A stretch of 64,000 nucleotides of DNA, taken from NCBI GenBank assembly GCA_050015175.1, contig JBEKBX010000017.1, forward strand, positions 195 through 64,194, read 5' to 3'. Source of the DNA: Acidimicrobiales bacterium. GTDB taxonomy: Bacteria; Actinomycetota; Acidimicrobiia; Acidimicrobiales; Bog-793. A program made the translations under genes and the position numbers. Below, piece after piece: positions 20,061-58,811 of this stretch (position 1 is the first letter of the stretch; each line of letters opens with the position of its first letter). The notes under the pieces are model-generated. The model worked only from the letters and a program-made list of their open reading frames with translations. It ran no database searches and had not been told where the DNA came from.

Positions 20061-23000
20061 CTATCCGATGACGAACCAGGCAATCTCGACCGAGACACTG
20101 ACGGGCGCTGTCAGATAGATCGTGAAGGCGCCGGCCTGCGTGTCCGGTACGACGGCTGCGACCGCGACGACGGCTGAGGTGCTGCCGCTGGTGACAAAAG
20201 CCTGGAGAGTGGCGAAAATCAGACTACCCGCCGTCAGTGTGACTCCGGCAACGGTCACACTCGCCTCGGGATTGGCCGTCGTTCCCGCTATGAGAGCGGT
20301 TCCGCTTCGCGAGAACGTGGCAACTCCCTCGACTTGGAGCGCCGTGCCTGTAGTGCTTGCGGCCGACACGCCGATCCCCGTGCCGCTCGAGCCCTGCACT
20401 CCAATACCGTCATTCTGGGTGCTGCCGTAGACGCCCACGCCACCTTCTGGGCTCGTGCTGACGCCCTGGACGCCGTACTTGCCGGCCAGTGCGCTTTGGC
20501 CGTACACGCCGGTGCCGTTCTCCGAGGTTCCTTGGACGCCGTAGCCACCGCCTGGGCTCGTATCGACACCTTCCACGCCGCTCTTGCCATTTGCTGCGGT
20601 TTGGCCGTAGGCACCCGTACCGTTGGTCGAGCTCCCGTTGGTGCCGTAGCCACCTCCTTTGCTCGTGTCGACGCCTTCCAGGCCGCTCTGGTCATCGGTC
20701 GTGGTAGTGCCGTAGACGCCGGTGCCGTTGTCTGAGCTTCCCTGGACGCCGTAGCCTCCGCCTGGGCTGGTGTTGACGCCCTCGACTCCGCTCTTGCCGG
20801 CCGCCGAGGTTTGCCCCTGGACACCGGCACCTCCGCTCGAGGTTCCGAAGGCGCCGATCCCGACCGCAGAGGCCCCGTAGGTGCCGTAACCGCCGGCAGA
20901 GCTCGTGTCGACGCCCTCGACTCCGCTCTTGCCGGCCGCCGAAGTTTGGCCGCGGGCTCCGATGCCGTTCTCCGAGGTTCCCTCGATGCCGTAACCGCCG
21001 GCCGAACTCGTGTCGACGCCTTTGACGCCGCTCTTGCCAGCGGCCAAGGTCTCGCCGTAGGCGCCGACGCCGTTGGTCGAGCTCCCGTAGGTACCGAAGC
21101 CGCCCAGCTTGCTTTCGTCGACCCCTTCCACGCCGCTCTTGTTCGCCGCCAAGGTTTGGCCGTAGGCGCCGACGCCGTTGGTCGAGCTCCCGTAGGTGCC
21201 GAAGCCGCCTAACTTGCTCGTGTCGACGCCTTTGACGCCGCTATTGTCGGCCGCCGAGGTCTCACCGTAGGCGCCGGTGCCGTGCTCTGAGGTTCCTTCG
21301 ACGCCGTAGCCACCGTCCACGCTCGTGTTGACGCCTCTGACGCCGCTCTTGCCAGCCGCTGCGGTCTCACCGTAGGCGCCTGTTCCGTTGGTCGAGCTCC
21401 CGTAGGTGCCGAAACCGCCTTCCTTGCCCGTGTCGACACCCTCGACTCCGCTCTTGCCGGTCGCCGAGGTTTGGCCGTAGACGCCGGTGCCGTTCTCTGA
21501 GGTTCCTTCGACGCCGTAGCCACCGTCCACGCTCGTGTTGACGCCTCTGACGCCGCTCTTGCCAGCCGCTGCGGTCCGGCCGTAAACGCCGGTACCTCCG
21601 CTGGAGCCTCCGTAAGCCCCGATTCCGTTCGTAGAGTGCCCGTAGGTGCCGTAACCGCCTGACTTGCTCGTGTCGACGCCCTCTACGCCGCTCTTGCCGT
21701 TCGCGGCGGTCTCACCGTAGGCGCCGGTGCCGTTCTCTGAGGATCCCTGGACGCCGTAGCCACCCTTCTTGCTCGTGTCGACACCCTCGACGCCGCTCTT
21801 AATGTCCGCCGAGGTCTCACCGTAGGCGCCGGTGCCGTTGGTAGAGCGCCCGTAGGTGCCGTAACCGCCTGACTTGCTCGTGTCGACACCCTCGACGCCA
21901 CTCTTGTTATCCGCCGAGGTCTCACCGTAGGCGCCGGTGCCATTGGTAGAGCTCCCGTAGGTGCCGTAACCGCCTGACTTGCTGGTGTCGGCGCCCTCGA
22001 CTCCGCTCTTGCCGGCCGCCGAGGTTTGGCCGTAGACGCCGGCGCCGTTCTCCGAGGTTCCTTCGACGCCGTAGCCACCGTCTGCGCTCGTGTTGACGCC
22101 TCTGACGCCGCCCTTGCCGGTTGCCGAGGTTTGGCCGTAGACACCGGCATCTCCGCTGGAGCCTCCATAAGCCCCGATCCCGTTCGCAGAGCTCCCGTGG
22201 GTGCCATAGCCGCCTGACTTGCTCGTGTCGACGCCTTCGACGCCACTCTTGCCGGTCGCCAAGCTTTGGCCGTAGACACCGGTGCCGTTCTCTGAGGATC
22301 CCTGGACGCCGTAGCCACCCTTCTTGCTCGTGTCGACACCCTCGACGCCGCTCTTATTATCCGCCAAGGTTTCACCGTAGGCGCCGGTGCCATTGGTAGA
22401 GCTCCCGTAGATGCCGTAACCGCCTGATTTGCTCGTGTCGACGCCCTCGACGCCACTCTTGCCGCTCGCGGCGGTCTCGCCGTAGGCGCCTGTTCCGTTG
22501 GTCGAGCTCCCGTAGGTGCCGTAACCGCCTGACTTGCTCGCGTCGACGCCCTCGACGCCGCTCTGGCCGGCGGCCGCCGTCTCGCCGTAGACACCGATTC
22601 CGTTCGTAGAGTGCCCGTAGGTGCCATAGGCGCCGCCGGCACTGGTATCGACGCCTTCGACGCCGCTTCGGTTTGCCGCCGATGTCTGGCCTTGAACACC
22701 GGTGCCGTTCTCTGAGGTTCCTTGAACGCCGTAGCCACCGCTCGGGCTCTTGTCGACGCCTTCGACGCCGCTCATGTCATCACCAAATGTCCGGCCGTAG
22801 GCGCCGATCCCGTGCGTCGAGAGCCCGTAGGTGCCATAGCCGCCGCCAGAACTGGTGTCGACGCCTTCGACGCCGCTGCTGTCTGTCTGGGAGGTGATGC
22901 CCTCAAGGCCTGAGCCGTGCGCGGTCGTGACGGCGGTCGTGGCGGTGGCCGAGTTCGTCGTGCCGAGAACCAAAGCGTCACTCGATGCATCCGTGGGATC

Positions 23001-23153
23001 TGCGCCAGCGACCAGGCCGGCGGTGATCCCCACACCGGTCGCCGCCGCCCCGAGCATGAGCGCGCGCCGACCGTATCTCGCCGCAGCCTTTCCTGATGCA
23101 TCACTGTCCCTGTCGGGTACAGCCCCAAGTTCGTCAAGGGGTCGCTCGTTCAC
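20061..23153 (-). CDS. Exported Gly/Ser/Thr-rich tandem-repeat protein (Tat-like leader, 22 repeats, C-terminal beta-rich domain)
   Basis: Leader RYGRRALMLGAAATGVG...ADPTDA. Repeats SGVEGVDTSKSGGYGTYGSSTNGTGAYGETAAAGK. C-terminus ATFSRSG...LTAGSLIFATLQ...FTIYL...IAWFVIG. Confidence 0.85.
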   Translation of the reverse strand: MNERPLDELGAVPDRDSDASGKAAARYGRRALMLGAAATGVGITAGLVAGADPTDASSDALVLGTTNSATATTAVTTAHGSGLEGITSQTDSSGVEGVDTSSGGGYGTYGLSTHGIGAYGRTFGDDMSGVEGVDKSPSGGYGVQGTSENGTGVQGQTSAANRSGVEGVDTSAGGAYGTYGHSTNGIGVYGETAAAGQSGVEGVDASKSGGYGTYGSSTNGTGAYGETAASGKSGVEGVDTSKSGGYGIYGSSTNGTGAYGETLADNKSGVEGVDTSKKGGYGVQGSSENGTGVYGQSLATGKSGVEGVDTSKSGGYGTHGSSANGIGAYGGSSGDAGVYGQTSATGKGGVRGVNTSADGGYGVEGTSENGAGVYGQTSAAGKSGVEGADTSKSGGYGTYGSSTNGTGAYGETSADNKSGVEGVDTSKSGGYGTYGRSTNGTGAYGETSADIKSGVEGVDTSKKGGYGVQGSSENGTGAYGETAANGKSGVEGVDTSKSGGYGTYGHSTNGIGAYGGSSGGTGVYGRTAAAGKSGVRGVNTSVDGGYGVEGTSENGTGVYGQTSATGKSGVEGVDTGKEGGFGTYGSSTNGTGAYGETAAAGKSGVRGVNTSVDGGYGVEGTSEHGTGAYGETSAADNSGVKGVDTSKLGGFGTYGSSTNGVGAYGQTLAANKSGVEGVDESKLGGFGTYGSSTNGVGAYGETLAAGKSGVKGVDTSSAGGYGIEGTSENGIGARGQTSAAGKSGVEGVDTSSAGGYGTYGASAVGIGAFGTSSGGAGVQGQTSAAGKSGVEGVNTSPGGGYGVQGSSDNGTGVYGTTTTDDQSGLEGVDTSKGGGYGTNGSSTNGTGAYGQTAANGKSGVEGVDTSPGGGYGVQGTSENGTGVYGQSALAGKYGVQGVSTSPEGGVGVYGSTQNDGIGVQGSSGTGIGVSAASTTGTALQVEGVATFSRSGTALIAGTTANPEASVTVAGVTLTAGSLIFATLQAFVTSGSTSAVVAVAAVVPDTQAGAFTIYLTAPVSVSVEIAWFVIG
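20478..22877 (-). repeat. Coding tandem repeat: 19 x 105 bp and 3 x 135 bp units
   Basis: Counted from the translation: 22 units starting S/G-G-V/L-x-G. Units 7, 12 and 19 carry an extra 10-aa GIGAYGGSSG-type subunit. Confidence 0.92.
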
Positions 23154-23227: not shown

Positions 23228-23851
23228 TCAGCCCGTAACAGACACGCCCGCAGCCGTGTCAGCAACGGACGTCGCGTCCACCGTCCCGTTCTTCTCCTTG
23301 GTGCCCTGCACGATCACGGTGTCTCCCGGTTGCATCGCTGACGCCGTGCTCTTGGCCTCACGGGTGTAGGTCGTGGATGTCCCGAGAAGCACCTTGACCA
23401 GGCCCCCGCTTGCAGTCGTGACATAGAGCGTGTTGCCCTCGATGGTCGTCACGATGCCGGCGGCCGCGCCCGTGCTCGAGAAGCCTGAGAAACCGCCCGA
23501 ACTGATGCCGGACGACCCCCTGGAACTGAACAGCCTCGCGAAGTTCGACGCAGCGCTTCCGGTGTTGGTCGTCCCGTGGGCGCGCTGCAAGGCAGCTCCG
23601 CCCCAGAGCCCGCCCGCACCGATGAGAAGGGCCACCAATACAGCCGTCGGGTACTTGAGCCGAAGACCCGCACGAGGGCTTCGTATCGGCCACTCGTCGT
23701 CGTCCGCTATATCGGTGTCGTCTCCTCCAAGTTGTCCCGCTGGTCGCGGCGAACCGGTGAGCTCGGAAGGGGCCATGTCGATCCCGACCGGTTGCGTGAT
23801 GGCACCGCTGATCGGAGGAAGCTCCTCTGTGGTGTTCGGGTCGTCTGGCAT
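23228..23851 (-). CDS. Single-TM membrane protein with a Gly-rich linker and DUF5666-like OB domain
   Basis: TM AVLVALLIGAGGLWGGAAL; GIVTTIEGNTLYVTT...MQPGDTVIVQG. GGGGAG RBS; last gene of the export operon. Confidence 0.7.
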   Translation of the reverse strand: MPDDPNTTEELPPISGAITQPVGIDMAPSELTGSPRPAGQLGGDDTDIADDDEWPIRSPRAGLRLKYPTAVLVALLIGAGGLWGGAALQRAHGTTNTGSAASNFARLFSSRGSSGISSGGFSGFSSTGAAAGIVTTIEGNTLYVTTASGGLVKVLLGTSTTYTREAKSTASAMQPGDTVIVQGTKEKNGTVDATSVADTAAGVSVTG

Positions 23852-23867
23852 GGATGCTCCCCTGTCT

Positions 23868-25091
23868 TCACTCATAACGAAGGGCGTCGATGGGTCTAAG
23901 TGACGCGGCACGATTGGCGGGGTAGAAACCAAAGAACACACCGACGGCGATCGAGACGCCGAAGGCGAGCACGATCGAGTACGGGGCTATGACAGGCTGA
24001 ACACCGACGATTTTGAACCGCGAGCCGACCACACCGATGACTACGCCAACGGTTCCCCCGATCAACGACAGCAAGACCGCCTCGAACAGGAACTGGGTGA
24101 GGATCGCTGATTTCGGAGCACCGATCGCCTTGCGGATCCCGATCTCGTGAGTGCGCTCCGTCACGGTCACGAGCATGATGTTCATCACTCCGATACCGCC
24201 GACGAGGAGCGAGATTGCGGCCACGGCGCCTAGCAACACGGTGAACGTGCTCGAGGTCGACTGCACCGTGGAAAGCAGGGTCGCCTGGTTCAGCACCTCG
24301 AACGGCAGGTCTGCGACCGTGGTGTCGTTCTGGGCCGCGAGGACGTTCTCGACCTCGGCCTCGGCGAGGTTCAGCGTTGAAGCCGACCTTCCTTGAACGA
24401 TGAGCTCGCTGAACGACTGGGAATAACCTGTCAAGTGGTCCTCGACCGCGGTGTAGGGCGCAATGGCCACTGCGTCCTGGTCAGTCAGCCCGCTCGAGCC
24501 CTTCGATGCGAGCACGCCGATTACCTCGAAGTTGGTCGATCCGATCATGATCGTCGCGCCGAGAGGATTCTCGCCGGTCGTGAACAGGTTGCTCGCAACA
24601 TCGGACCCGATGTCGACGACCTGGGCGTGGGATGTGACGTCCTGGCTGGAGATCGCGCTGCCGGCCTGGACGGTGTAGTCCTCGGCACCTAGGTAGGAGG
24701 GAGTCGACCCGTCAACAGTGGTGGTGTAGGAGGCCGCGCCGTAAGTGGCCGTCTCGCTCGTGCTCACGACCGGCGAGACCGACTTCACGTCCGGGGCGTT
24801 GTCCGGGTTCTCGAGCTCGTTGACGTCCGCGATCGTCAACGACGCCTGTTGGGTTTGGGTGCCACTTGAAAAAGCCCCCCGGCCGAAGCGGCCGGTGTTG
24901 AAGACCGTGAGGGTGTTTGTTCCGAGCTGGTTGATCCGGCTCTCGACCGCCTGAGAGGATCCGGTCCCGACCGCGACAAGGATGATGACGGCCGCGACAC
25001 CAATCAGCACGCCAAGGGTAGTGAGCACGGACCGGAGCTTGTTCGAACTGATCCCGCCGATGGCGACCCGGAGATTGTCAAAAACGTTCAA
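23868..25091 (-). CDS. MacB-family ABC permease
   Basis: NKLRSVLTTLGVLIGVAAVI, GIGVMNIMLVTVTERTHEIGIRKAIGA, PANRAASLRPIDALRYE. Confidence 0.96.
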   Translation of the reverse strand: MNVFDNLRVAIGGISSNKLRSVLTTLGVLIGVAAVIILVAVGTGSSQAVESRINQLGTNTLTVFNTGRFGRGAFSSGTQTQQASLTIADVNELENPDNAPDVKSVSPVVSTSETATYGAASYTTTVDGSTPSYLGAEDYTVQAGSAISSQDVTSHAQVVDIGSDVASNLFTTGENPLGATIMIGSTNFEVIGVLASKGSSGLTDQDAVAIAPYTAVEDHLTGYSQSFSELIVQGRSASTLNLAEAEVENVLAAQNDTTVADLPFEVLNQATLLSTVQSTSSTFTVLLGAVAAISLLVGGIGVMNIMLVTVTERTHEIGIRKAIGAPKSAILTQFLFEAVLLSLIGGTVGVVIGVVGSRFKIVGVQPVIAPYSIVLAFGVSIAVGVFFGFYPANRAASLRPIDALRYE

Positions 25092-25969
25092 CTCACTCCT
25101 CCGCCTAGGTTGCCTGACGCCGGCGCAGCGCCGGCGGGCGCCTCACGCTGCTCCATTCGCGTCTCCGAATGCACCGGGACGATGCGGCTGTCCTCGTAGA
25201 TCTGCCCGTCGCGCAGCCGGACGACCCGACGCGTGAAAGAGGCGATGTCCTGTTCATGGGTGATGATCACGACGGTCCGGCCCTCGGCGTTCAGTCGACT
25301 GAAAATGGCCATGATCTCGTGGCTCGAGGCCGTGTCGAGATTCCCGGTCGGCTCGTCGGCAAGGATCAGGGCAGGGGCCGTCACCAGAGCTCGGGCGATG
25401 GCGACGCGCTGCTGCTGGCCACCGGACATCTCGCTCGGGAGGTGATGGCTGCGGTCCTCGAGGCCGACCTGGCGCAGCGCTGCCATGGCCCGTGCGTGCC
25501 TTTCTTTCGGCTTCACGCCTCCGTAAGCGAGCGCGAGCTCCACGTTCGCCAAAGCGGTAGTGCGCGGGATCAGGTTGTAGTTCTGGAACACGAACCCGAT
25601 CTTGCGATTGCGGATCCGCGAGAGATCCGACTCCTCGAGTTGGCGTACGTCCACTCCCTCGAGCCAATAGTGCCCCCTCGTCGGCACGTCAAGGCATCCG
25701 ATGATATTCATCATCGTCGACTTCCCAGAGCCGGAGGCTCCCATTATGGCGACGAAGTCGCCTGCCTCGACGCTCAGCGAGACCCGGCGGAGCGCGTGAA
25801 CTTCGACCTCCCCCGTCTCGTAGGTCTTCGATACCGAGCGCAGGACGACGACCGGTCGTCTCCCGCCAACGGGGACCAAGGCCGTCGGAGCCGCCGCGCC
25901 TCGGGATGGCAGGGCGCGAAGGCCGTCGGGTGACCCGCCTCGGCGGCGGAAGAGCTGTTGACTGCTCAT
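25088..25969 (-). CDS. MacB-family ABC ATP-binding protein
   Basis: GASGSGKST, MSGGQQQRVAIARAL, ILADEPTGNLD. Confidence 0.95.
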   Translation of the reverse strand: MSSQQLFRRRGGSPDGLRALPSRGAAAPTALVPVGGRRPVVVLRSVSKTYETGEVEVHALRRVSLSVEAGDFVAIMGASGSGKSTMMNIIGCLDVPTRGHYWLEGVDVRQLEESDLSRIRNRKIGFVFQNYNLIPRTTALANVELALAYGGVKPKERHARAMAALRQVGLEDRSHHLPSEMSGGQQQRVAIARALVTAPALILADEPTGNLDTASSHEIMAIFSRLNAEGRTVVIITHEQDIASFTRRVVRLRDGQIYEDSRIVPVHSETRMEQREAPAGAAPASGNLGGGVS

Positions 25970-28074
25970 CCGAAGCTGCCGCCGCCTACGAAGACACCGC
26001 CGCCGCCGCCGCCGATGCGGGTCGGGCTTGTCGATCCTGTCGTGCCGGACGAGGGCGAGATCGTCGCTGTCGGCTCCACGAGTTTCTCGCCTGCGGTGAC
26101 GCCGCTCAGGATCTGCGTCGTCGAGTTACCGACCAGACCGACGGTGACGGGGGTGGTGACATCCTTGCCGTTCTTCAACACCGTGACAGTCGAGGTGAGG
26201 CCGGCCGTCGTCACTGCGGCGCTCGGGACCTCGAGCACATTCGTTGCCGTGTCGACGACGACGCTGACGTCCGCCGTCATTCCGTCCAAGATCGTGGCCG
26301 GAGGGTCCTTGAGCGCGATCGTCTCGTCATAGGTGACGACGTTGCTGCTGACGACCGATGTCGGCGATATCGCAGTGACGACGGCAGCGAGCTCGGTGGA
26401 AGGCAGGGCGGCCAAGGTCACGGTCGCCGGTTGACCGACGGCGATCTTGGTGGCGTCGGCCTCGGCGAAGCCTGCGACGACCTCGAGGTCCTTGAGGTTG
26501 TCAATGGTGACGAAACCGCTCGACGACGATGAGCTCGACGACGATGAGGCCGCGGACGACGAGGCCGCGGACGAAGAGCTGCCTCCGCTCACCGTCTCGC
26601 CGACCGTGCCGTTGACCGCAGTCACCGTGCCGGAGATGGAGGCGGTGAGGACGGTTCCCGCGAGCGCATTCTCGTCAGAAGTGACGGCCTGCTGGTCCTG
26701 GGTGACCGCCGCCTCATCCTGAGAGATGGTCGCCGTGTCGATTGCCTGACTTGCCTTGGTGGCTGCCAGGCTGGCCTGCTGCAGCTGAATCGTCTGCTTC
26801 TCGTTCTGCACGGCCTGCTCGTCGCTGGCAATTGTCTCCCGATCCGTCACACACGACCTGGTGGCGGTGATCAGGTACTCAGGCGAGCCGTAGGAAGTCC
26901 CCTTACTGTTGGAGGCCACCAGGCGGAAGACGTACGAGGTTTCCGCCTTGAGCCCGCGCACCAGAGCCGAGACGGTAACAGTCGTGGAACCGGCGTCGAC
27001 CGTCGTCGGTACGGTCTGCGACCCGTATACCGCGGTGGTTCCGTACTGGAAGAAATAGGTCGTCTCGGCGTCATTGGGATCCACCGATCCCTCGAGCGTG
27101 GCCGTCGTTGTCGTGACCGATTCCGCGGATGAGGTGACGACCGTGGGAGCCGTCACCTGGTCGCTTCCCGAGTCAGAAATGCTGACGGCGTGGCTGGAGC
27201 TGGAGGGGAATGTGGTGGAGGTGGAGCTGGTGTTCGTTGTTGTCGTCGGCGTCGTGGTCGTGGTTGTCGTCGGCGTCGTGGTCGTGGTTGTCGTCGGCGC
27301 CTCGGTGGTGGTCGTGGTCGACGCCGGCTTCGTGGTCGTGGTTGTCGTCGGCGTCGTGGTCGTGGTCGTGGAGCTGGTTCCGGTCGAGCCCGTGGAGCCG
27401 GTGGAGCTGGTTCCGGTCGAGCCCGTGGAGCCGGTGGAGCTGGAACTGCTGCCTGACGAGGACGACGAAGAAGAGGCCGCCGGGCAACCGAGCCTCTGGT
27501 CCGTGGCGAGCTGAGCCTTTGCGGTTGCCAGTGTCGACTGGTCCGAAATGAGCTGCAGGCTGTCGGAGCTCAACTGGGCTTGCGCAGATGCGAGCTGCGA
27601 CTTGTCCTGCGCGAGCTGCGACGCCGAGCCGCCCTGGCGAGCTTCCTGCAAGGCTGCTTCAGCGCTCTGGAGACTGGCGACGGCAATCACGAGGTTCGAT
27701 CGCGCCGTAGTCGGGTCAAGCGTGGCGAGCACTTGTCCAGCCCGGACCTGGTCCCCGACAGCGACGTCGACGGCGGTGACTGTGCCGCTAGCGGTGAAAT
27801 TCTCGCTGGCGTCGGTGGCGGGGCTGATGTTGCCGGAGGCCGTGACACTTTCTTGGACGATGCCGCGCTGCACTGTCACGGTCCGAACGATGCCGGTCGA
27901 GGCTGAAGTGGTCCCGTAGATCGATCGCAGGCCAAATCCGGCTACGGCTGCGATGGCCAAAACAAGGACCGTGTAGAAGGCAATCTTGCGTCCTCGTCGC
28001 GCATGAGGCTGGCCAACAACGCTATCTACTGCCATATCAGAACGCGACTTGCGAAAAACAGACTTCACTGCCAA
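25966..28074 (-). CDS. Membrane-fusion (MacA-like) adaptor with a Ser/Thr-rich + fibronectin type III insertion
   Basis: N-terminal TM, lipoyl half-motif (ASGTVTAVDVAVGDQVRAGQVLATLD), coiled-coil hairpin, FN3-like insert (TTATLEGSVDPNDAETTYFFQYGTT...GLKAETSYVFRLVASNSKGTSYG), C-terminal MFP barrel (VGLVGNSTTQILSGVTAGE). Confidence 0.88.
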   Translation of the reverse strand: MAVKSVFRKSRSDMAVDSVVGQPHARRGRKIAFYTVLVLAIAAVAGFGLRSIYGTTSASTGIVRTVTVQRGIVQESVTASGNISPATDASENFTASGTVTAVDVAVGDQVRAGQVLATLDPTTARSNLVIAVASLQSAEAALQEARQGGSASQLAQDKSQLASAQAQLSSDSLQLISDQSTLATAKAQLATDQRLGCPAASSSSSSSGSSSSSTGSTGSTGTSSTGSTGSTGTSSTTTTTTPTTTTTTKPASTTTTTEAPTTTTTTTPTTTTTTTPTTTTNTSSTSTTFPSSSSHAVSISDSGSDQVTAPTVVTSSAESVTTTTATLEGSVDPNDAETTYFFQYGTTAVYGSQTVPTTVDAGSTTVTVSALVRGLKAETSYVFRLVASNSKGTSYGSPEYLITATRSCVTDRETIASDEQAVQNEKQTIQLQQASLAATKASQAIDTATISQDEAAVTQDQQAVTSDENALAGTVLTASISGTVTAVNGTVGETVSGGSSSSAASSSAASSSSSSSSSSGFVTIDNLKDLEVVAGFAEADATKIAVGQPATVTLAALPSTELAAVVTAISPTSVVSSNVVTYDETIALKDPPATILDGMTADVSVVVDTATNVLEVPSAAVTTAGLTSTVTVLKNGKDVTTPVTVGLVGNSTTQILSGVTAGEKLVEPTATISPSSGTTGSTSPTRIGGGGGGVFVGGGSFG
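27175..27480 (-). repeat. Low-complexity Thr/Ser/Pro-coding repeats (24-bp TTTTTTPT units; 33-bp STGSTGTSSTG units)
   Basis: Repeated gtcgtcggcgtcgtggtcgtggtt and gtggagctggttccggtcgagcccgtggagccg. Confidence 0.85.
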
Positions 28075-28133
28075 TCCTGTCCTTTACTCATCGGGAGAGG
28101 CCGGCTAGCTGGGCGGAGGCGGCACAAAGGTCG

Positions 28134-28949
28134 TCAGCTTGTCGTCGACGTCGAGGTTGTACTGGATGTCGGGATGGACTTCGGCAGGAGGCTCGCGCAG
28201 GCTGCGAGCGCCTTCTGAACCGACGCGCTCTTCGTGTTGGGCGTGGTCGACGTGGTTGAGTTGTCGGCGCCGGAACTGCTGGGCAACGTCACGCCGTGGA
28301 GCTTGAGGCAGTTGCGGTAAGCGGCGAAGGCCGCGCTCGAGAAGCCGCCCGCCCCGGCCCCGAATCCCTTCGGGCGCAGGCTAGCGCAGGCGGCGAGCGC
28401 CTTTTGGACCGACGCACTCTTCGTGTTGAGCGTGGTCGACGTGGTTGGACTGGCGCCGGAAGATCCGCTGGGCAACGTCACGCCGTGGAGCTTCAAGCAG
28501 TTGCGGTACGCGGCAGAGGCCGCGCTCGAGAAGCCGCCCGTCCTCGTGCCGAATCCCTTCGGGCGCAGGCTCGCGCACGCGGCGGACGCCTTTTGGAACG
28601 CGGGCGAGTTGAAGCTCCCGCCCGTCGGGAACCCGCCTGTCGGGAAGCTGCCGCCGGTCGGGAAGCTGCCGCCCGTCGCTCCAGCGCCAAACCCGCCGAA
28701 CTTCACGCCGTGCTTCTGCATGCACGCGGCGAATGCCACGGATGACGCCTTTGGACTGCTGCCGGCACTTGTCGCTGCGGTCGTCGTGGAGGTGGTCGAG
28801 GAGGTCGCGTTCGATGACCCGCCCCCGCAGGCGCTCAACGCGACGGAGCCGGCAAGCACGATCGCCAGCAGAGGAAACCAGACCCGCCGCAACGACCGGA
28901 CACGGAAGGCGGGCGATAACTGGCCATTACGGCGAATGGTTCTCCGCAT
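28134..28949 (-). CDS. Lipoprotein with Cys-paired helical modules (first gene of the export operon)
   Basis: Lipobox ALSA-C; repeated AYRNCLKLHGV...ALAACASL; AGGGAG RBS. Confidence 0.8.
   Translation of the reverse strand: MRRTIRRNGQLSPAFRVRSLRRVWFPLLAIVLAGSVALSACGGGSSNATSSTTSTTTAATSAGSSPKASSVAFAACMQKHGVKFGGFGAGATGGSFPTGGSFPTGGFPTGGSFNSPAFQKASAACASLRPKGFGTRTGGFSSAASAAYRNCLKLHGVTLPSGSSGASPTTSTTLNTKSASVQKALAACASLRPKGFGAGAGGFSSAAFAAYRNCLKLHGVTLPSSSGADNSTTSTTPNTKSASVQKALAACASLLPKSIPTSSTTSTSTTS
28195..28572 (-). repeat. 189-bp (63-aa) internal tandem duplication in the lipoprotein
   Basis: gcgagcgcctt at 28204 and 28393; near-identical peptide modules. Confidence 0.9.
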
Positions 28950-29509
28950 GTTGGGAGCTCCCTTTGGAAGTCAGATTCATATTCACCCGGTGTCGACATT
29001 CCGCTTGACAAGGGCAACAAAGCATAACGGCGCCTTCGGTGTCGGGATGGGCGTGGCGATACGGCAGCAGGATCAGTCTGGATCCCGATTCTGAGAGCAA
29101 GCTGTGAACTAGCAAAGGACTGCCTGTGGCCGGGCCCGCTTCCGCCCCGCACACGCCACGTCGTTCCCCCGCCGACGTCGGCCCTACCGACCCTGACAAT
29201 CTCGCGATCTCGTGCCACACATCATCCCGTGCTCCATGAGCGACGTTGGGGGATTGAACTCCGATCTGAGCGGCTCGTCGAAGTCGCACTCGGCTCGTGC
29301 ATCGCCACCGAGCTGAACACCGAGGTGTTCCTCGCGACAGCAGGAGTTGTGCACAGTGCACGGTCTCCCACTCCCTCTCGATAACTTGCTCGCCACCTAC
29401 GGCAGCGATGCCGTCCCCGCACTGAGCGAGGTTCGCATCACCGTCGAACTGCTCAGTGGCCTCGACCCGTCCCGCGGCTAGAACCAGTCGCTAGGACCGG
29501 AGTGTTTCA

Positions 29510-30050
29510 GTGTGCGACTCGGTACCTGCTCAGCAGGGCGCCGATGTACCGAAGGGTCCCCTGGTCCAACTCCTTTCCTTCGCGAAGTTCTTCGTCGCTC
29601 TCAGGCCTGTGCCGCCCATCTGTCTCTCGGTCCCTGTCCACACAGAACTGGGCGAAGGCGACCTGTCGTCGCAGAAGCCCTCTTCCAGGTCGTCGCCCGC
29701 GTGGTACACGACATGAGCCTTGAGCCAGTCCATCACCTGCGAGAGTGCCTCGCGGTCAGGGATGCAAGTGGTTTGGTGCGCTCGCGCTCTTCTGGGTGAG
29801 CGGGTCAGCGATCGCCATCAACTCGTAGAGCGAGTCGAGGCCGTAGGCTTCGACGAACCCCTTCAGCATGCTCTCCCACTCGTCCCAGACGTCGTAGGCT
29901 TTCTGGACGCTCAAGCGCCCATCGTAGAGAGCTTCGCAGGTGTCGTGGAGTCTGACCGCGACGCCAGGATCGAGATGACCTGACGCCTCAAGGTAGTCAC
30001 TCGGGAAGTCCTCGCCTCGACAGTCGAAGACCTCGGCAGTCGTCCTCGTG
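29510..30050 (-). pseudogene. Frameshifted remnant of an unknown protein gene
   Basis: Protein-like segments in different frames: AEVFDCRGEDFPSDYLEASGHLDPGVAVRLHDTCEALYDGRLSVQKAYDVWDEWESMLKGFVEAYGLDSLYELM / VMDWLKAHVVYH / ELDQGTLRYIGALLSRYRV. Confidence 0.45.
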
Positions 30051-30155
30051 GCGTCATGTTTGCCAGGTGCATCTCGTCACCCATCGCCTGGCTCTCCTCG
30101 CTCCTCCGAGCCTCGACCTCACGGTGTTGGAAGTCCGACTCACGGCGCAGGTCCC

Positions 30156-30197
30156 AAAAAGAAAGGAACCCCGGTCCCTTGTGAGGACCGGGGTTCC
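30156..30197 (-). terminator. Intrinsic terminator of the surface-protein gene
   Basis: 13-bp stem GGAACCCCGGTCC (30165-30177)/GGACCGGGGTTCC (30185-30197), 7-nt loop, followed on the minus strand by TTTCTTTTT; 35 bp after the stop. Confidence 0.9.
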
Positions 30198-30231: not shown

Positions 30232-32949
30232 CTAGCTGATTGGAGACGGCGAACCCGCAATGGTTTGCGGGTCTGCTGCGAACACGTCCGCGCTTGCCGA
30301 GTTCACCGCGTACACCGCGTTGGCGGTGGTCTCTGCAGCTCCTTGGTCGAACTCGATGCTGGCACTGCCCTGTGGTGCGTTGAACGGCCCAAGCAGGGTC
30401 AGCACGTCACCCGAGGTTGTGCAGTCACCGGACGTTGGCGCACCACCGGAGAATCCAGCTGTGTACTCGTAGATGAAGTCGCTCACATCAGCACCAGTTG
30501 ACGGGCAGAACACGGGTTCGTTGTAGGTGATCGCGATTGACACACCCGTCGTCACGACCGCCGACACCATCGACGGAACGCCCGTCAGATCAGCGTAAGG
30601 AAGTGTCTGCGTCGCCGCGTACTCCGGGAATCCAACAGCCGTGCTCACCGATACGCCACCGCCGTCCGTCGTCGGCTCTGTGTACACGAGCGTGTCCGTG
30701 GACACCGGGGTGACCAGAGTCACTGCTGTGGTACCGGTCGTCCCACCAGCGAGGAAGAGCGACAGCGTCAGCACGTCGCCAGCAACCCCGCAGTGGGTTG
30801 GGTAAGCAGGCGTGCCGTCGTTGCTGTACACCCAGGCCGCTTGAATGCCAGCAGCCGTGAGCGGGCAGATGGGGGCCTCGTTGTAGGTAACGGCGATGGT
30901 CCCTACCCCGGAGGCACCAGGCGTCACGATCGCCGTCGTCATGGCTGGCGTCTCAAACGTCGTCAATGTCTGCGTTGGCGCAAACACTGAAGTACTACCG
31001 GTGGCGTAAGCCGCGTTCCCAAACGGACTCGTTGCAGCCGTGGCTACCGGTGTCGTCGGTGCCGTGTACAAGATCTCGGCACCGCTCCCTGGGTCCTGGA
31101 AGGTCGTATTCGGAATCAGCCACAGCACGTCACTGCCCTGTTGTTCGCAGTTCGCGATCGCGCCACCGAGGATTCCAGCAGCCGAGTAGTACGTGAAGTC
31201 GCTGAACGCAGTACCGTCCGGACCGGCCTGGCAGGACACGTCCTCGTTGTAGGTGATCGCGAGTTCGCCGCCAGCGAGCACTTGCGCAGACTTCATGGTG
31301 AGACCCACTGTCGAGGCCACCGAGAGTGCCTGCGGGGTTAGCGCAGCCGTCGCGGAGCTGTTTTGCACGTTGTCCCCAGCGGCGCCAACAGCGATGTACT
31401 CGATGGTGCCAACACCAACTGGCAAAAGGAAGCTCGTCACCGGGAGCAGGGTCAGTACATCACCTGAACACGAACCAGAGGCGACTAGGCCGCCAGAGGC
31501 CGCACCGCTGTAGTAGTACGTGAAGTCGGCAGCATCCAACGCTGCGCAGTTCACGGCCTGGTTGTAGGTGATCGCGATTGATGTGTCGGTCACGACCGCC
31601 GAGGCCATGACCGGCCCAGAAGTGACGTAGGTCGCGAAGTACCCGAAGACGTCGACCACGAGGTTGATCGTCCCGTAGCTGTTGTAGACCTCGACGCTGC
31701 CCGTGCCGTTCGTGTCCGCGATGGTGAAGTTCGGGACGATGCCGTTGGCAACCCAGTTGACGTCAGAAAAGTCTGGCTGGGTCGTCATGGCCGGTGCCGG
31801 GTAGACCGAGAGGTAACCGGAGCTGGCGCCTGCAACCACCGTGACGTTGGCATCCACCGAAGTGGCAGTCGTGGGGATCCCACTCGCCGTGGTGGCGAGG
31901 AGGAAGCTCTCCGAGGCGTTAGTCGTGATCGGTGTCTCGGTGCCGATCAAGCTGGCGGTGCGGGTGTCGGCCACGCGGACCGGTGCCGCGAGCGGCACGT
32001 AGTCCGAGCCGGTGCCACCAACGCCGGTGAAGTACCCGTCCACGTCGATGTCGACGTCAGCGCTGCCGGCGTGGTTGTAGACCTCGATCACTCCGCCGGT
32101 GCCGACTGCGACGATCGCGCGGTTGGCAACAACTTCTCCGGCCGAGGCGTTGAGGTTCGAGAACGTCGGCTCCGTCGTTACCGCCGGTGCCGGGTAGAGG
32201 CTAAGGAACGTCGCCGCACTGTCGTGGGCGACAGTCGCGTTGACCAGAACAGCGCTCGCGTTGGCGGGCACGGTGGTGGTACCCCCCGCCACTGTGACGG
32301 GCACGCTCGTGTTCGCCGCAACCGCTGCGCCGAGGGCGAGGGTGCCGAGATCACGCACGGGAGACATCGAGTTGAACAACCCGTAGCCGTTGGCCGCAGG
32401 AGTGCTCGTGAAGTAGCCCTCCACGTCGACTACGACGTCCGCGTCAGTGGCCGAGCTGTAGATCGACACCGCACCCGCAGCGCTCAGCGGAGCTGTCACG
32501 AGGTTCGCCACCGTCTGGCCGGCGTCGAAGTTGAGGTTGGAGACCGTCGGCTGGGTGGTCCCCGCCTCGAAGACGGTCAGGAACCCGGAAGACTTCGTGT
32601 TTGTGGCAGTCACGTTGAGCACCGCCGCCAACGATCCAGCCGGTACGGGCGTAGTGCCCACCCCGGTGACCTGCACGGTCAGCGTGGGGGCGGCAGTGGT
32701 GAGAGTCGAACCTGCGTTCGGCAGGCCGGAGCCAGTCCGCGTGTCAGTGATGCGGAAAGGCGTCACTGGGACGTAGGTGCCCGGGTCGGCCGCCGTCGCA
32801 TGTGAGTGAGTTGCGGCAGAGGCCGAAGTGGCTAGTGCAAGTGGTCCAAGGAGCAGACCGGTCGCGGCAATCAAGGCCGTCCCGAGCCGGATCGGCATAT
32901 GCCTACCCGTCTTCTCCTCCGTCGGGCCTTCACGGGATGACCTAAGCAT
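30232..32949 (-). CDS. Large secreted surface (S-layer/adhesin-like) protein
   Basis: Signal peptide ending in ATSASA-A. Three beta-sandwich units (YVPVTPFRITDTR...SNLNF...ADVVVDVEGYF), then four SwmB-like units (M.SA.V....IAITYNE.V.C). Start placed after GGAGG RBS. Confidence 0.82.
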   Translation of the reverse strand: MLRSSREGPTEEKTGRHMPIRLGTALIAATGLLLGPLALATSASAATHSHATAADPGTYVPVTPFRITDTRTGSGLPNAGSTLTTAAPTLTVQVTGVGTTPVPAGSLAAVLNVTATNTKSSGFLTVFEAGTTQPTVSNLNFDAGQTVANLVTAPLSAAGAVSIYSSATDADVVVDVEGYFTSTPAANGYGLFNSMSPVRDLGTLALGAAVAANTSVPVTVAGGTTTVPANASAVLVNATVAHDSAATFLSLYPAPAVTTEPTFSNLNASAGEVVANRAIVAVGTGGVIEVYNHAGSADVDIDVDGYFTGVGGTGSDYVPLAAPVRVADTRTASLIGTETPITTNASESFLLATTASGIPTTATSVDANVTVVAGASSGYLSVYPAPAMTTQPDFSDVNWVANGIVPNFTIADTNGTGSVEVYNSYGTINLVVDVFGYFATYVTSGPVMASAVVTDTSIAITYNQAVNCAALDAADFTYYYSGAASGGLVASGSCSGDVLTLLPVTSFLLPVGVGTIEYIAVGAAGDNVQNSSATAALTPQALSVASTVGLTMKSAQVLAGGELAITYNEDVSCQAGPDGTAFSDFTYYSAAGILGGAIANCEQQGSDVLWLIPNTTFQDPGSGAEILYTAPTTPVATAATSPFGNAAYATGSTSVFAPTQTLTTFETPAMTTAIVTPGASGVGTIAVTYNEAPICPLTAAGIQAAWVYSNDGTPAYPTHCGVAGDVLTLSLFLAGGTTGTTAVTLVTPVSTDTLVYTEPTTDGGGVSVSTAVGFPEYAATQTLPYADLTGVPSMVSAVVTTGVSIAITYNEPVFCPSTGADVSDFIYEYTAGFSGGAPTSGDCTTSGDVLTLLGPFNAPQGSASIEFDQGAAETTANAVYAVNSASADVFAADPQTIAGSPSPIS

Positions 32950-33559
32950 ACGTTTCTTCCTCCATCTCCAGGGTTCCTGCGTATTTCTGTACCGTCGTGT
33001 GGCTCTTTTCAAACCGCCAGCCAACGGCACAAACCTATCACAGCCCAGCCGATACCACTCGATACATGGAACAAGTCGAAACTAGTTGCTCACGTGACAG
33101 GAGTCAAGCATACTGACATATCCTTCTTGACAACGTCCTGTTCCGGAGCATCAAGCAGGACTTGGCAGTCCACGTCGTTGCAACTCTAGTATGCACCACT
33201 GCACAAACAAACAATGGTCAGGGTTCAAAGTTCCGGACCTCTTCGGTCGGATCTTACGCATCCGGAGCACAAGCTCGCACGCGACCGCTTCCTGAACGCG
33301 ACACGAACCGCCTCTGCTCATGGCCCGTGCGTGCCAGATCAGCTTGGACGCGCCGCGGGCGCGCCAGCCGTGATCGGGGCGCGCGTCTTCTCAGGAGCGG
33401 ACGTCGTCTTGCGATTTCGGGGAGGTATCCCGGCTAAACCTCATCAGGTCAAAGCACCGGCTATTCGCCAAACCTGGGGCAACACCGAGTGCGCGCCGGC
33501 AGACCCGGTCGCGCGTTAATGACCTCAGGCGACATTCATGATCGGGGTGTCGGACGGCC

Positions 33560-57113: not shown

Positions 57114-58811
57114 TCACATGCCGAAGAAAGGCAGTATCCGAGTGGGCACGACGCGCTTGGAAGGGATCACCACCACATACGGTCCGCTGTAGCGCATCGT
57201 GTAGCCGATGTGATGATCGTCGCACCACTCGACGATCTCGGGCACCAACAGGCACTGCTGGTCCGGCGCGATGCACCCGGGGTCGAGGGCCGTCGTCCCG
57301 GCCTCGACGGCCGCCTCCTGCTCCAGGGCGGGCTTCACGAAGATCCACGCCGGCGTCGGGCTCGCGGCTATGGCTCGGTAATAGGGCTGATAGCGGATGA
57401 AATCAGGCCCGGCAGGGCTGACGGTGACGCGGCCGTCGGAGAGGAAGGCCAGGTCGTAGCCGAGCCAGTAGCTGGAAAAGGCGTCACGGACATGCCAGCG
57501 GACCAGTGAGTCCGCGAGCGCGGTGGGCAGGTTGTTGGGGTTCGTATGCCACGAGAGCCAACTGGTGCGCTCGACTGCGGGCAGGGCCACGACGGGCTTG
57601 TAAGGCGGCTCGCCTCGCGCGGCGACAAGTGTCAGCCCCAAGGCCGCGACGAGCACGATCGCAGCCATGGTCGCAGGAGCGAGCTGCGTGTACCCCATCG
57701 CCCACATGCCGGCCTCGCAGACCAACGAGACGATGACGAGCCCGAGCAAGGGCGCCAGGAAGATCGCGTAGCGGGCGTCGTGCCAGTACCAGGTGAACGG
57801 CTGCGCGGCGTAGAGGAACGGGAACGCCGCGACGAAGAGCAGCAGCAGCCACGCTCGCCCGTGCATCGCCAGGTACAAGAGCCAGCCGACGAGCACGACG
57901 AGCACGACGTTCACGAGATGGGGCGTCAGGTTCGACGGGGCCACCCATTCGCCCGACCCGCGGGTCCGAAGGCCGAGAACGATCGGGAGCACGTAGCGGT
58001 CGAATATGCCAAGATGCCACCAATACGCTCCTCCCGGACCGGGAGGCGGAGGCTGGGGAACCCCGGCGAGCGAGTCGAAGTGATGGGGGAGGTTCTGCCA
58101 CCACCAGGGGAGCGAGCCGACGGCAAGAGCCACTACGCCAAGGGCCAGGGAGCCCAAAGGCACCTCGGCCCGTCGCTGTACGACGCGGGCCAGAAGGTAG
58201 ACGCCGGCCGGGGCGAGGAAGTAGACGATCTCCGGGCTGGACCACCAGCCAACGCCGGCGCCGAGCCCGAGCGCGAGCCAGTCGAGCCTCCCGCCGTCGC
58301 CGTCCCCGATCCTGAGCACGGTCAAGAACACGACGAGCCCGCAGACGAGCACGACCCAACGAAAGCCATCGCCATGGTCGTAGTAGGTCACATAAGGCTC
58401 GGGCCAGACCCAAAAGGCGATGGCGGCCACCGCGCCGACCGGACTGCCGAACATGCGGTTCCCGATCCGCCACAGGACTGCGACCGACGCGGCACACAAC
58501 AGGACGGTCGTGAGCCCGAGGGTGAACGCAGAGCTCCCCAACAGTGCGAAGACCCCGGCGACCGCGTAGGCCTCCGTGCCTCCGTAGTTCTGGGCCCAGA
58601 AGAACGCGAAGAAGTGACCGTGCAGGATCTCCTGGGCCATGAGCCCGACGACTGCCTCGTCGGAGTTGATGGTGCCTCTGCCGAGGGCATAGAGCCTGAG
58701 CAGGAGGCCGAGCAGGAGCGCGAGCACCACAACGGCAGTCAGCGCCGGGTTCGCCCGCCAGCACGCGGCAAGTCGCCGCCAAGGAGTCGACCGGCGGCTC
58801 AAGGCTCTCAC
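57114..58811 (-). CDS. GT-C fold membrane glycosyltransferase (PMT/ArnT-like)
   Basis: First loop NSDEAVVGLMA, ~11 TMs, extracytoplasmic C-terminal domain; start uncertain. Confidence 0.72.
   Translation of the reverse strand: MRALSRRSTPWRRLAACWRANPALTAVVVLALLLGLLLRLYALGRGTINSDEAVVGLMAQEILHGHFFAFFWAQNYGGTEAYAVAGVFALLGSSAFTLGLTTVLLCAASVAVLWRIGNRMFGSPVGAVAAIAFWVWPEPYVTYYDHGDGFRWVVLVCGLVVFLTVLRIGDGDGGRLDWLALGLGAGVGWWSSPEIVYFLAPAGVYLLARVVQRRAEVPLGSLALGVVALAVGSLPWWWQNLPHHFDSLAGVPQPPPPGPGGAYWWHLGIFDRYVLPIVLGLRTRGSGEWVAPSNLTPHLVNVVLVVLVGWLLYLAMHGRAWLLLLFVAAFPFLYAAQPFTWYWHDARYAIFLAPLLGLVIVSLVCEAGMWAMGYTQLAPATMAAIVLVAALGLTLVAARGEPPYKPVVALPAVERTSWLSWHTNPNNLPTALADSLVRWHVRDAFSSYWLGYDLAFLSDGRVTVSPAGPDFIRYQPYYRAIAASPTPAWIFVKPALEQEAAVEAGTTALDPGCIAPDQQCLLVPEIVEWCDDHHIGYTMRYSGPYVVVIPSKRVVPTRILPFFGM

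Follow-up and report, generated by a model that had tools for sequence, protein, structure and literature searches.

A conserved MacAB-like gene cassette of monoderm Actinomycetota with a predicted FN3 domain at the tip of the adaptor hairpin

Introduction

The hairpin tip of Gram-negative MacA docks TolC. What purpose the adaptor of a MacB-type ATP-binding cassette (ABC) transporter serves where there is no outer membrane is treated as an open question in reviews of MacB (PMC5985334). Two described monoderm systems come closest to the locus reported here. Spr0693-Spr0694-Spr0695 of Streptococcus pneumoniae (PDB 5XU0/5XU1; PMC5768738) has its nucleotide-binding domain (NBD) and its MacB-type permease on separate proteins and a transmembrane (TM)-anchored adaptor with hairpin, lipoyl and barrel domains, a flexible and variable hairpin turn and an enlarged lipoyl gating loop; a tube of this type has been proposed to reach the peptidoglycan (PMC5768738). 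YknWXYZ of Bacillus subtilis / B. amyloliquefaciens, a multi-component monoderm system of MacB type with an extra membrane protein, protects against an envelope-acting peptide, and its adaptor YknX binds peptidoglycan (cited in PMC5985334). Here we describe a cassette of five co-oriented genes at positions 23228-28949, minus strand, of a 64,000-nucleotide window (the whole stretch of DNA analysed) from a metagenome-assembled genome (MAG) of an Acidimicrobiales bacterium. The genes encode a lipoprotein, an adaptor (membrane fusion protein), an ABC ATPase, a MacB-type permease and a DUF5666 protein, and the adaptor is predicted to carry a fibronectin type III (FN3) domain at its hairpin tip. With moderate confidence, we read the cassette as encoding a MacAB-like pump of a monoderm, in which the free tip of the hairpin has been turned into a wall-facing FN3 crown, and the fibre gene next to it as an unrelated neighbour.

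The best structural and profile match is MacAB-TolC of Escherichia coli (PDB 5NIK, 9QGY, 3FPP), which shares the domain order and ring residues of the adaptor and the periplasmic core of MacB. It differs in that MacB fuses NBD and permease and in that the tip of MacA docks TolC, a family that the present host lacks. Spr0693 is nearer in its monoderm setting, but its similarity to the adaptor family is weak in sequence (profile E 1.6e-8), and its tip consists of ~22 untraced residues with no folded domain and no cysteine pair, whereas the tip of the window adaptor spans 210 residues and includes an FN3 domain. The gating loop comprises 4 residues in MacA, 14 in Spr0693 and 23, forming a poly-Ser stretch, in the window adaptor. 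Compared with Spr0693-0695, the window system also has longer hairpin arms and two extra conserved partners, the lipoprotein and a protein with an oligonucleotide/oligosaccharide-binding (OB) fold. YknWXYZ in turn has no lipoprotein partner, no FN3 and no cysteine clamp, and YknW, which has four TM helices, bears no relation to the bitopic DUF5666 protein with its single TM helix and OB-like barrel; this sets the cassette apart from the four-component type. Nor does the cassette conform to the BceAB-BceRS type, in which the permease has ten TM helices, an adaptor is absent and the kinase senses within the membrane, as against a 407-residue MacB-type permease and an adaptor here. Our literature search found no paper describing an FN3 domain in an adaptor hairpin. 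The FN3-tipped hairpin is a conserved and apparently undescribed design, but not a new kind of system.

Results and Discussion

Architecture of the adaptor

The adaptor gene (28074-25966, minus strand; 702 amino acids, with GTG 28068 as the likely start) matches RND_mfp TIGR01730 at 110.1 bits against a cut-off of 94.9, and HlyD_D23 and HlyD_3 also score above their cut-offs. The MacA equivalog NF008606 is reached at 70 bits against a cut-off of 342; by this score, and with no TolC-family partner, the protein is judged not to be an orthologue of the MacA that works within MacAB-TolC. No OEP/TolC protein (PF02321) was found in the host genome (4.5 Mb, 93% complete) or in 20 relatives, and no Omp85 in the host genome. 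The host is a monoderm without an outer membrane, as the initial annotation had assumed.

An AlphaFold2 model of the adaptor was computed as a monomer from 82 sequences, and it has a mean predicted local distance difference test score (pLDDT) of 77, with most structured blocks above 90. From the N-terminus, and all on the minus strand, it contains a TM anchor modelled as a helix (residues 30-53, 27916-27987), lipoyl and barrel strands up to residue 119, a first hairpin helix with one kink (residues 122-194, 27493-27711, as delimited by DSSP) and, after the insert, a second hairpin helix (residues 407-472, 26659-26856). The rest of the lipoyl domain follows, then a disordered poly-Ser segment (501-515) and the barrel and membrane-proximal domains up to residue 666. 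The modelled adaptor therefore has the full MacA plan, with a TM anchor, a lipoyl domain split by a hairpin of ~70 residues per arm, a beta-barrel and a membrane-proximal domain. Foldseek against the PDB returned MacA in MacAB-TolC at the top (9qgy_G, E 1e-19; 5nik_D, E 2e-17), followed by AcrA, MexA, EmrA and Spr0693, with target-normalised TM-scores of ~0.6 against MacA, AcrA and MexA, and a profile built from 21 relatives matches MacA at E 1e-39.

Among 5.8 billion proteins searched, 1,062 matched, and the best-ranked of these share the architecture of the adaptor. For a closer survey, helix 1 and helix 2 ends were located and FN3 domains counted by hidden Markov models in 136 full-length adaptors, 135 of them distinct. 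The two hairpin arms (helix 1/helix 2) typically measure 72/66 residues; in four relatives they reach 100/94, an increase of 28 in each, and across the family their lengths co-vary (r = 0.96). Because the model runs in the order helix, insert, helix, because the alignments with MacA agree and because the arms change length together, the insert can be placed at the hairpin tip, where the initial annotation had put it.

The residues E231, Y276 and T293 of MacA have a role in its hexamer ring (PMC8277102). Invariant E538 and near-invariant T600 of the adaptor align with E231 and T293, and a conserved tyrosine, Y582, aligns with MacA Y275, one position off the ring residue. On these alignments, a MacA-like hexamer is likely.

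The cysteine pair, the linker and the FN3 domain

The insert is bracketed by the motifs QRLGC(197)PAAS and ATRSC(408)VTDRE, both confirmed with coordinates, so that one cysteine does lie on each side, as first noted. Cys197 (LGCP motif, first half of the putative clamp; 27484-27486, minus strand) and Cys408 (SSCVTD motif, first turn of helix 2; 26851-26853, minus strand) are invariant in family alignment A2, and DSSP assigns the model a beta-bridge between residues 199 and 406, with the two cysteines as neighbours. Both cysteines are present in 113 of the 135 distinct adaptors, neither in 17 and a single one in 5; in one clade with 3-4 FN3 domains they are replaced together, C to F and C to K/Q/R. 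The pair (LGCP ... SSC[VT]TD) also brackets FN3-free loops of 11-112 amino acids. This distribution marks the pair as ancestral, older than the FN3 domain, and as kept or lost jointly. VKOR is encoded in the host genome, which makes extracytoplasmic disulfides plausible. A Cys197-Cys408 disulfide closing the tip loop, proposed at the outset, is plausible on the co-occurrence of the cysteines, their joint loss in one clade, their modelled proximity and the presence of VKOR.

Behind Cys197 lies a Ser/Thr/Gly low-complexity tether of 108 residues (198-305; 27160-27483, minus strand), modelled with pLDDT below 50 at 204-305. Its DNA contains, at 27230-27443, nested tandem repeats with periods of 24 and 54 nucleotides and a perfect 33-nucleotide period (2.3 copies), a pattern consistent with slippage as the source of length change. 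The linker evolves fast, varying from 106 to 180 amino acids between relatives with over 75% identity. A database protein 98% identical to the window adaptor differs from it by indels inside the linker. Across relatives, the linker averages 33% Ser, 22% Thr and 20% Gly and ranges from 4 to 292 amino acids.

The tether is followed by the FN3 domain (residues 306-405; 26860-27159, minus strand), modelled as a beta-sandwich with strands at 311-402 and pLDDT above 90. Taken alone, this segment matches PF00041 at E 3.8e-5 and 24.3 bits, 0.7 below the gathering score of 25. The central part of the adaptor profile matches FN3 domains of titin, neogenin and DCC at E 4e-12 to 1e-6, and PF00041 is precomputed on many of the relatives. 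Profile matches and model together identify the inserted domain as FN3, in agreement with the FN3-like domain of the initial annotation. The number of copies per adaptor (n=136) is 0 in 18, 1 in 87, 2 in 11, 3 in 14, 4 in 4, 5 in 1 and 8 in 1. The extreme of the series is an adaptor of 1,516 residues (locus L037, 6862-11412), whose tip cysteines enclose eight FN3 domains and a linker of 189 residues.

The position of the linker bears on how the tip is built. In every relative the linker is N-terminal to FN3, and the last FN3 domain is flush with helix 2 (offset 0), except in six single-FN3 relatives with offsets of -4 to +7; at one three-FN3 locus (L020) the offset reads -7. The distance from the FN3 C-terminus to helix 2 is within about 5 residues. 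The minimum linker for adaptors with 1, 2, 3, 4, 5 and 8 FN3 domains is 4, 59, 49, 75, 151 and 189 amino acids, respectively (Spearman rho 0.56). The N- and C-termini of an FN3 domain lie at opposite ends of the domain. With the linker always on the N-terminal side, it is therefore read as the return path to helix 1 and not as a stalk. The earlier description of the Ser/Thr stretch as a stalk is thus not upheld, FN3 being joined to helix 2 and the linker lying always on its N-terminal side.

O-glycosylation of the Ser/Thr linker, called probable in the initial annotation, is a guess. Glycosylation by a classical Pmt was rejected, as PF02366 has no match in the host genome (93% complete); another route is conceivable, and three generic GT-C proteins of the PMT_2 type are present. 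One of these three, a PMT_2-type GT-C glycosyltransferase, is encoded in the window at ~58098-58571 (minus strand).

The variability of the tip raises the question of whether the insert matters at all. A loop freed from TolC might simply tolerate low-complexity growth and the capture of a common FN3 repeat. Such neutrality would suit a linker made of recent tandem DNA repeats and highly variable in length, FN3 numbers that run from 0 to 8, the existence of members without FN3 and of members without the cysteines, and an FN3 subtype that is abundant and mobile among surface proteins. We nevertheless hold it quite improbable that the insert is functionally neutral. The FN3 domains of the adaptors are 45-60% identical to one another across three orders, keep a constant orientation and stand flush with helix 2 in nearly every relative. 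Copies within one protein share only 40-60% identity, so that the multi-copy arrays are old and contain no recent duplicates, and the adaptor copy is the sole domain of this subtype in the host genome. That the subtype is dedicated to adaptors was considered and rejected: a library-wide search returned 29,615 representative proteins, with giant extracellular proteins of up to 41 copies on top. In giant extracellular repeat proteins, this subtype is a widespread rod module.

Conservation of the five-gene cassette

The initial annotation had listed five co-oriented genes of the types named above, and open reading frames and Pfam/NCBIfam matches bear this out. All lie on the minus strand. The lipoprotein gene comes first (28949-28134; 271 amino acids) and is separated by a 59-nucleotide gap from the adaptor gene. 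The ATPase gene (25969-25088; 293 amino acids) overlaps the end of the adaptor gene by 4 nucleotides, the permease gene (25091-23868; 407 amino acids) overlaps the ATPase gene by 4, and the DUF5666 gene (23875-23228; 215 amino acids), read from the ATG that matches its relatives, overlaps the permease gene by 8. The ATPase matches ABC_tran PF00005 (117 bits, E 1e-33), and its translation has Walker A, signature, Walker B-Glu and H-loop all intact. The permease matches MacB_PCD PF12704 (132.7 bits, E 3e-38) and FtsX PF02687 (69.5 bits, E 3e-19) and aligns with MacB residues 257-646. By these matches, permease and ATPase constitute a MacB-type (type VII) ABC transporter with NBD and permease on separate, overlapping genes. 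Since its host lacks an outer membrane, its adaptor is anchored by a TM helix and its NBD and permease are separate proteins, the system belongs with the monoderm MacAB-like pumps of the Spr0693-95/YknXYZ type.

We scanned 185,579 species genomes with a 21-sequence adaptor alignment, which gave 195 loci; 80 of these were retrieved, and locus counts refer to these 80. All come from MAGs of Acidimicrobiaceae/Acidimicrobiales, Gaiellales, Solirubrobacterales and unclassified Actinomycetota, mainly from soil, bog and peat. The order adaptor-ATPase-permease-DUF5666 is kept in essentially every locus of sufficient length. Recurrence in well over 100 relatives puts this arrangement far from chance; the five-gene cassette is conserved. 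The host genome encodes a single adaptor of this kind, and the presence of the adaptor within the host genus is based on four near-identical loci.

The two partners outside the transporter core are almost as constant. The lipoprotein has an LSAC lipobox followed by three two-helix repeats with one cysteine per helix (F..C..HGV ... A..AC..L.P) and matches no Pfam family. Its two-helix unit, present here in three copies, usually occurs twice in other members of a family that counts more than 550 proteins, all annotated as 'hypothetical'. In a sensitive search, a member of this family lay on the same strand beside the cassette in 66 of the 80 loci, usually just upstream of the adaptor gene, after the DUF5666 gene in three loci (L008, L018, L037) and on both sides in one (L036); loci without it are mostly truncated contigs. 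The DUF5666 protein reaches 22 bits with the Pfam model, below the cut-off of 27, and stands beside the permease in 70 of the 80 loci, most of the others being cut at a contig end. It is bitopic, with an acidic cytoplasmic tail, a conserved DEWPxR motif just before the single TM helix, a Gly/Ser linker and an extracytoplasmic barrel, for which a family-wide model gives a five-strand OB-like barrel with weak and generic fold matches. Kinship of this domain with the membrane-proximal domain of the adaptor was rejected (hhalign probability 7%, with the TM helices alone aligning). The literature that we searched yielded no functional data on DUF5666. The cassette thereby defines two nearly obligatory and unstudied partners, a cysteine-repeat lipoprotein family and a membrane-anchored DUF5666 protein with a predicted OB fold.

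A poly-Ser loop at the gating position

The adaptor has a second low-complexity element that the initial annotation does not mention, a poly-Ser/Gly loop of 23 residues (498-520; 26515-26583, minus strand) that is disordered in the model and partly encoded by a 15-nucleotide tandem repeat. MacA residues 208 and 213 flank adaptor profile positions 417 and 450, which places the loop at the position of the Gln209 lipoyl loop of MacA. That loop forms the gating ring of the MacA hexamer, and the equivalent loop of Spr0693 acts likewise (PMC5768738; PMC5985334). In 92 relatives the poly-Ser loop measures 16-73 residues (median ~40) and consists of 52% Ser and 21% Gly. If the hexamer forms, six long polar loops would point into its lumen.

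Loops of this length at the gating ring could occlude the lumen and, together with two extra extracytoplasmic partners in nearly every locus and with the way in which MacB relatives work (PMC5985334), they lend some support to a mechanotransmission device like FtsEX or LolCDE, with no duct. ATP-driven motion of the periplasmic domain of MacB would then be passed through the adaptor to FN3 anchors in the wall, or to the lipoprotein and OB-fold partners, and the machine would act on the wall or hand lipid or lipoprotein outward. We consider this unlikely. The full MacA architecture and its ring residues are kept, in keeping with a tube, neither a hydrolase nor a Lol-like chaperone is linked, and there is no precedent for an adaptor as a force-bearing rod.

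Another alternative, to which we likewise assign only a small probability, takes the cassette as a five-component class of MacB system with no open efflux duct. Six poly-Ser loops would make a flexible polar plug at the gating ring, a disulfide-stapled crown of FN3 rods (0-8 domains, matched to envelope thickness) would fix the end of the tube in the wall, and ATP-driven motion would pass a cargo, carried by the lipoprotein or by the OB-fold partner, across or into the wall. If this plugged arrangement were true, the hairpin tip would serve as ruler and as anchor in the wall, and adaptor function in monoderms would have a new explanation.

Regulatory neighbours

In 23 of the 80 loci (for example L018, 5384-7668 and 14323-15411; L075, 5825-8144), the cassette is accompanied by an OmpR-type regulator, by a HAMP-HisKA kinase or by the two together, and in 5 an HtrA-like Trypsin_2-PDZ protease is near it. 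For these relatives, though not for the window copy, the neighbours hint at envelope-stress control. The neighbourhood of regulator, kinase and protease resembles actinobacterial envelope-stress modules.

These genes, together with the floppy tether and rigidly attached domain, which would suit a lid, and the FN3 identity held across orders, could be taken to mean that the FN3 domain at the tip acts as a receptor or as a lid on a tether, which binds a substrate or wall ligand or plugs the tube, and that it gates the pump or signals flux or envelope damage to the neighbouring two-component system in the manner of BceAB-BceS. However, the kinases beside the cassettes have a ~150-residue extracytoplasmic sensor region of their own and a HAMP domain, unlike BceS with its intramembrane sensing; arrays of 2-8 FN3 domains resemble rods more than lids; the window copy has no adjacent kinase; and the FN3 subtype is a generic repeat module. 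A receptor or lid is accordingly a doubtful explanation of the tip.

The neighbouring fibre gene

A glycine-rich fibre protein with a twin-arginine translocation (Tat) signal is encoded next to the cassette (20061-23153, minus strand) and is judged to lie outside the conserved system. Its gene starts at 23153, 74 nucleotides past the DUF5666 stop, on the same strand, in line with the ~75 base pairs first estimated; a plausible ribosome-binding site precedes it, and no terminator-like site was found between the two genes. The initial annotation had tentatively linked this repeat protein functionally with the pump, which would export or assemble a surface structure with it, the FN3 arm serving as a platform for display or assembly. 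In favour of such a link, the two remain adjacent in the four closest loci, and the window is rich in genes for surface glycans and surface proteins. The link did not hold up, and we now regard it as highly unlikely. The twin-arginine signal in the translation implies that the fibre protein is exported by Tat, its own route, and MacB-type machines are not known to move folded proteins of 1000 residues (PMC5985334). In the synteny survey, the fibre gene adjoins only 4 of the 80 cassettes (L001, L002, L003 and L009, all closest relatives), and the protein is patchy within the genus, occurring in 4 of 12 same-genus genomes (missing in 8) and in none of the 8 other families sampled. On its export signal and synteny we reject the fibre protein as cargo or conserved partner, and we infer that it is an unrelated, clade-specific neighbour.

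A proposed wall-facing FN3 crown

We return to the favoured reading of a monoderm pump with an FN3 crown. The hairpin tip is no longer constrained, because there is no TolC to dock. In the proposed mechanism, the adaptor would form a MacA-like hexameric tube on a MacB dimer, with a hairpin barrel of ~100 Å projecting from the membrane into the wall; Gram-positive MacA-like tubes are proposed to reach peptidoglycan (PMC5768738). Each of the six tips would be stapled by the Cys197-Cys408 disulfide and would present an FN3 domain fixed rigidly to helix 2; the Ser/Thr stretch would serve only to lead the chain back from the far end of FN3 to helix 1. Six FN3 domains, or up to 48 in relatives, would form a crown or a bundle of rods, within the peptidoglycan or beyond it, that may anchor the far end of the tube in the wall or act as its spacer. 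By analogy with Spr0693-0695 and YknWXYZ, the motor would most likely clear the outer face of the membrane of an envelope-acting compound, and the pumps of relatives may be under envelope-stress two-component control.

Several points weigh against this reading. Hexamer, tube and crown are extrapolated by homology, the model being that of a monomer, and it is one modelled beta-bridge (199-406) that brings Cys197 and Cys408 together. The 17 relatives that have neither cysteine show that the staple is dispensable, and linkers of 4-7 residues in some single-FN3 members would barely allow a closed loop round an upright FN3 domain. Poly-Ser loops of 16-73 residues could fill the lumen and fit poorly with a simple open duct. 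No two-component system adjoins the window copy, and nothing in the window links it with a substrate, a resistance gene or a biosynthetic cluster. Finally, the 80 named loci all derive from MAGs, so that no cultured member, and hence no phenotype, is on record for the family.

The family offers a natural experiment on the role of the adaptor without an outer membrane. The part of the protein that is dedicated to TolC elsewhere is here a hot spot, a cysteine-bracketed loop that ranges in relatives from a few residues to eight FN3 domains. From the tip loop and the long poly-Ser gating loop follow predictions about disulfide formation, wall binding and the effect of FN3 number.

Upstream sequences

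The gene upstream of the cassette is ended by a strong terminator-like hairpin at 30198-30164 (minus strand). Between it and the lipoprotein gene extends a gene-poor stretch of 1.2 kb (28950-30163), in which we found no convincing open reading frame and no Rfam match at E up to 0.1; on these results, the idea of a regulatory RNA in the stretch was rejected. Further upstream, at 30232-33030 (minus strand), lies a gene for a secreted protein of 932 amino acids made of internal repeat modules, with no Pfam match. Paralogues of this protein flank the cassette on both sides in three of the closest relatives (L002, L003 and L009), with up to four copies in L002.

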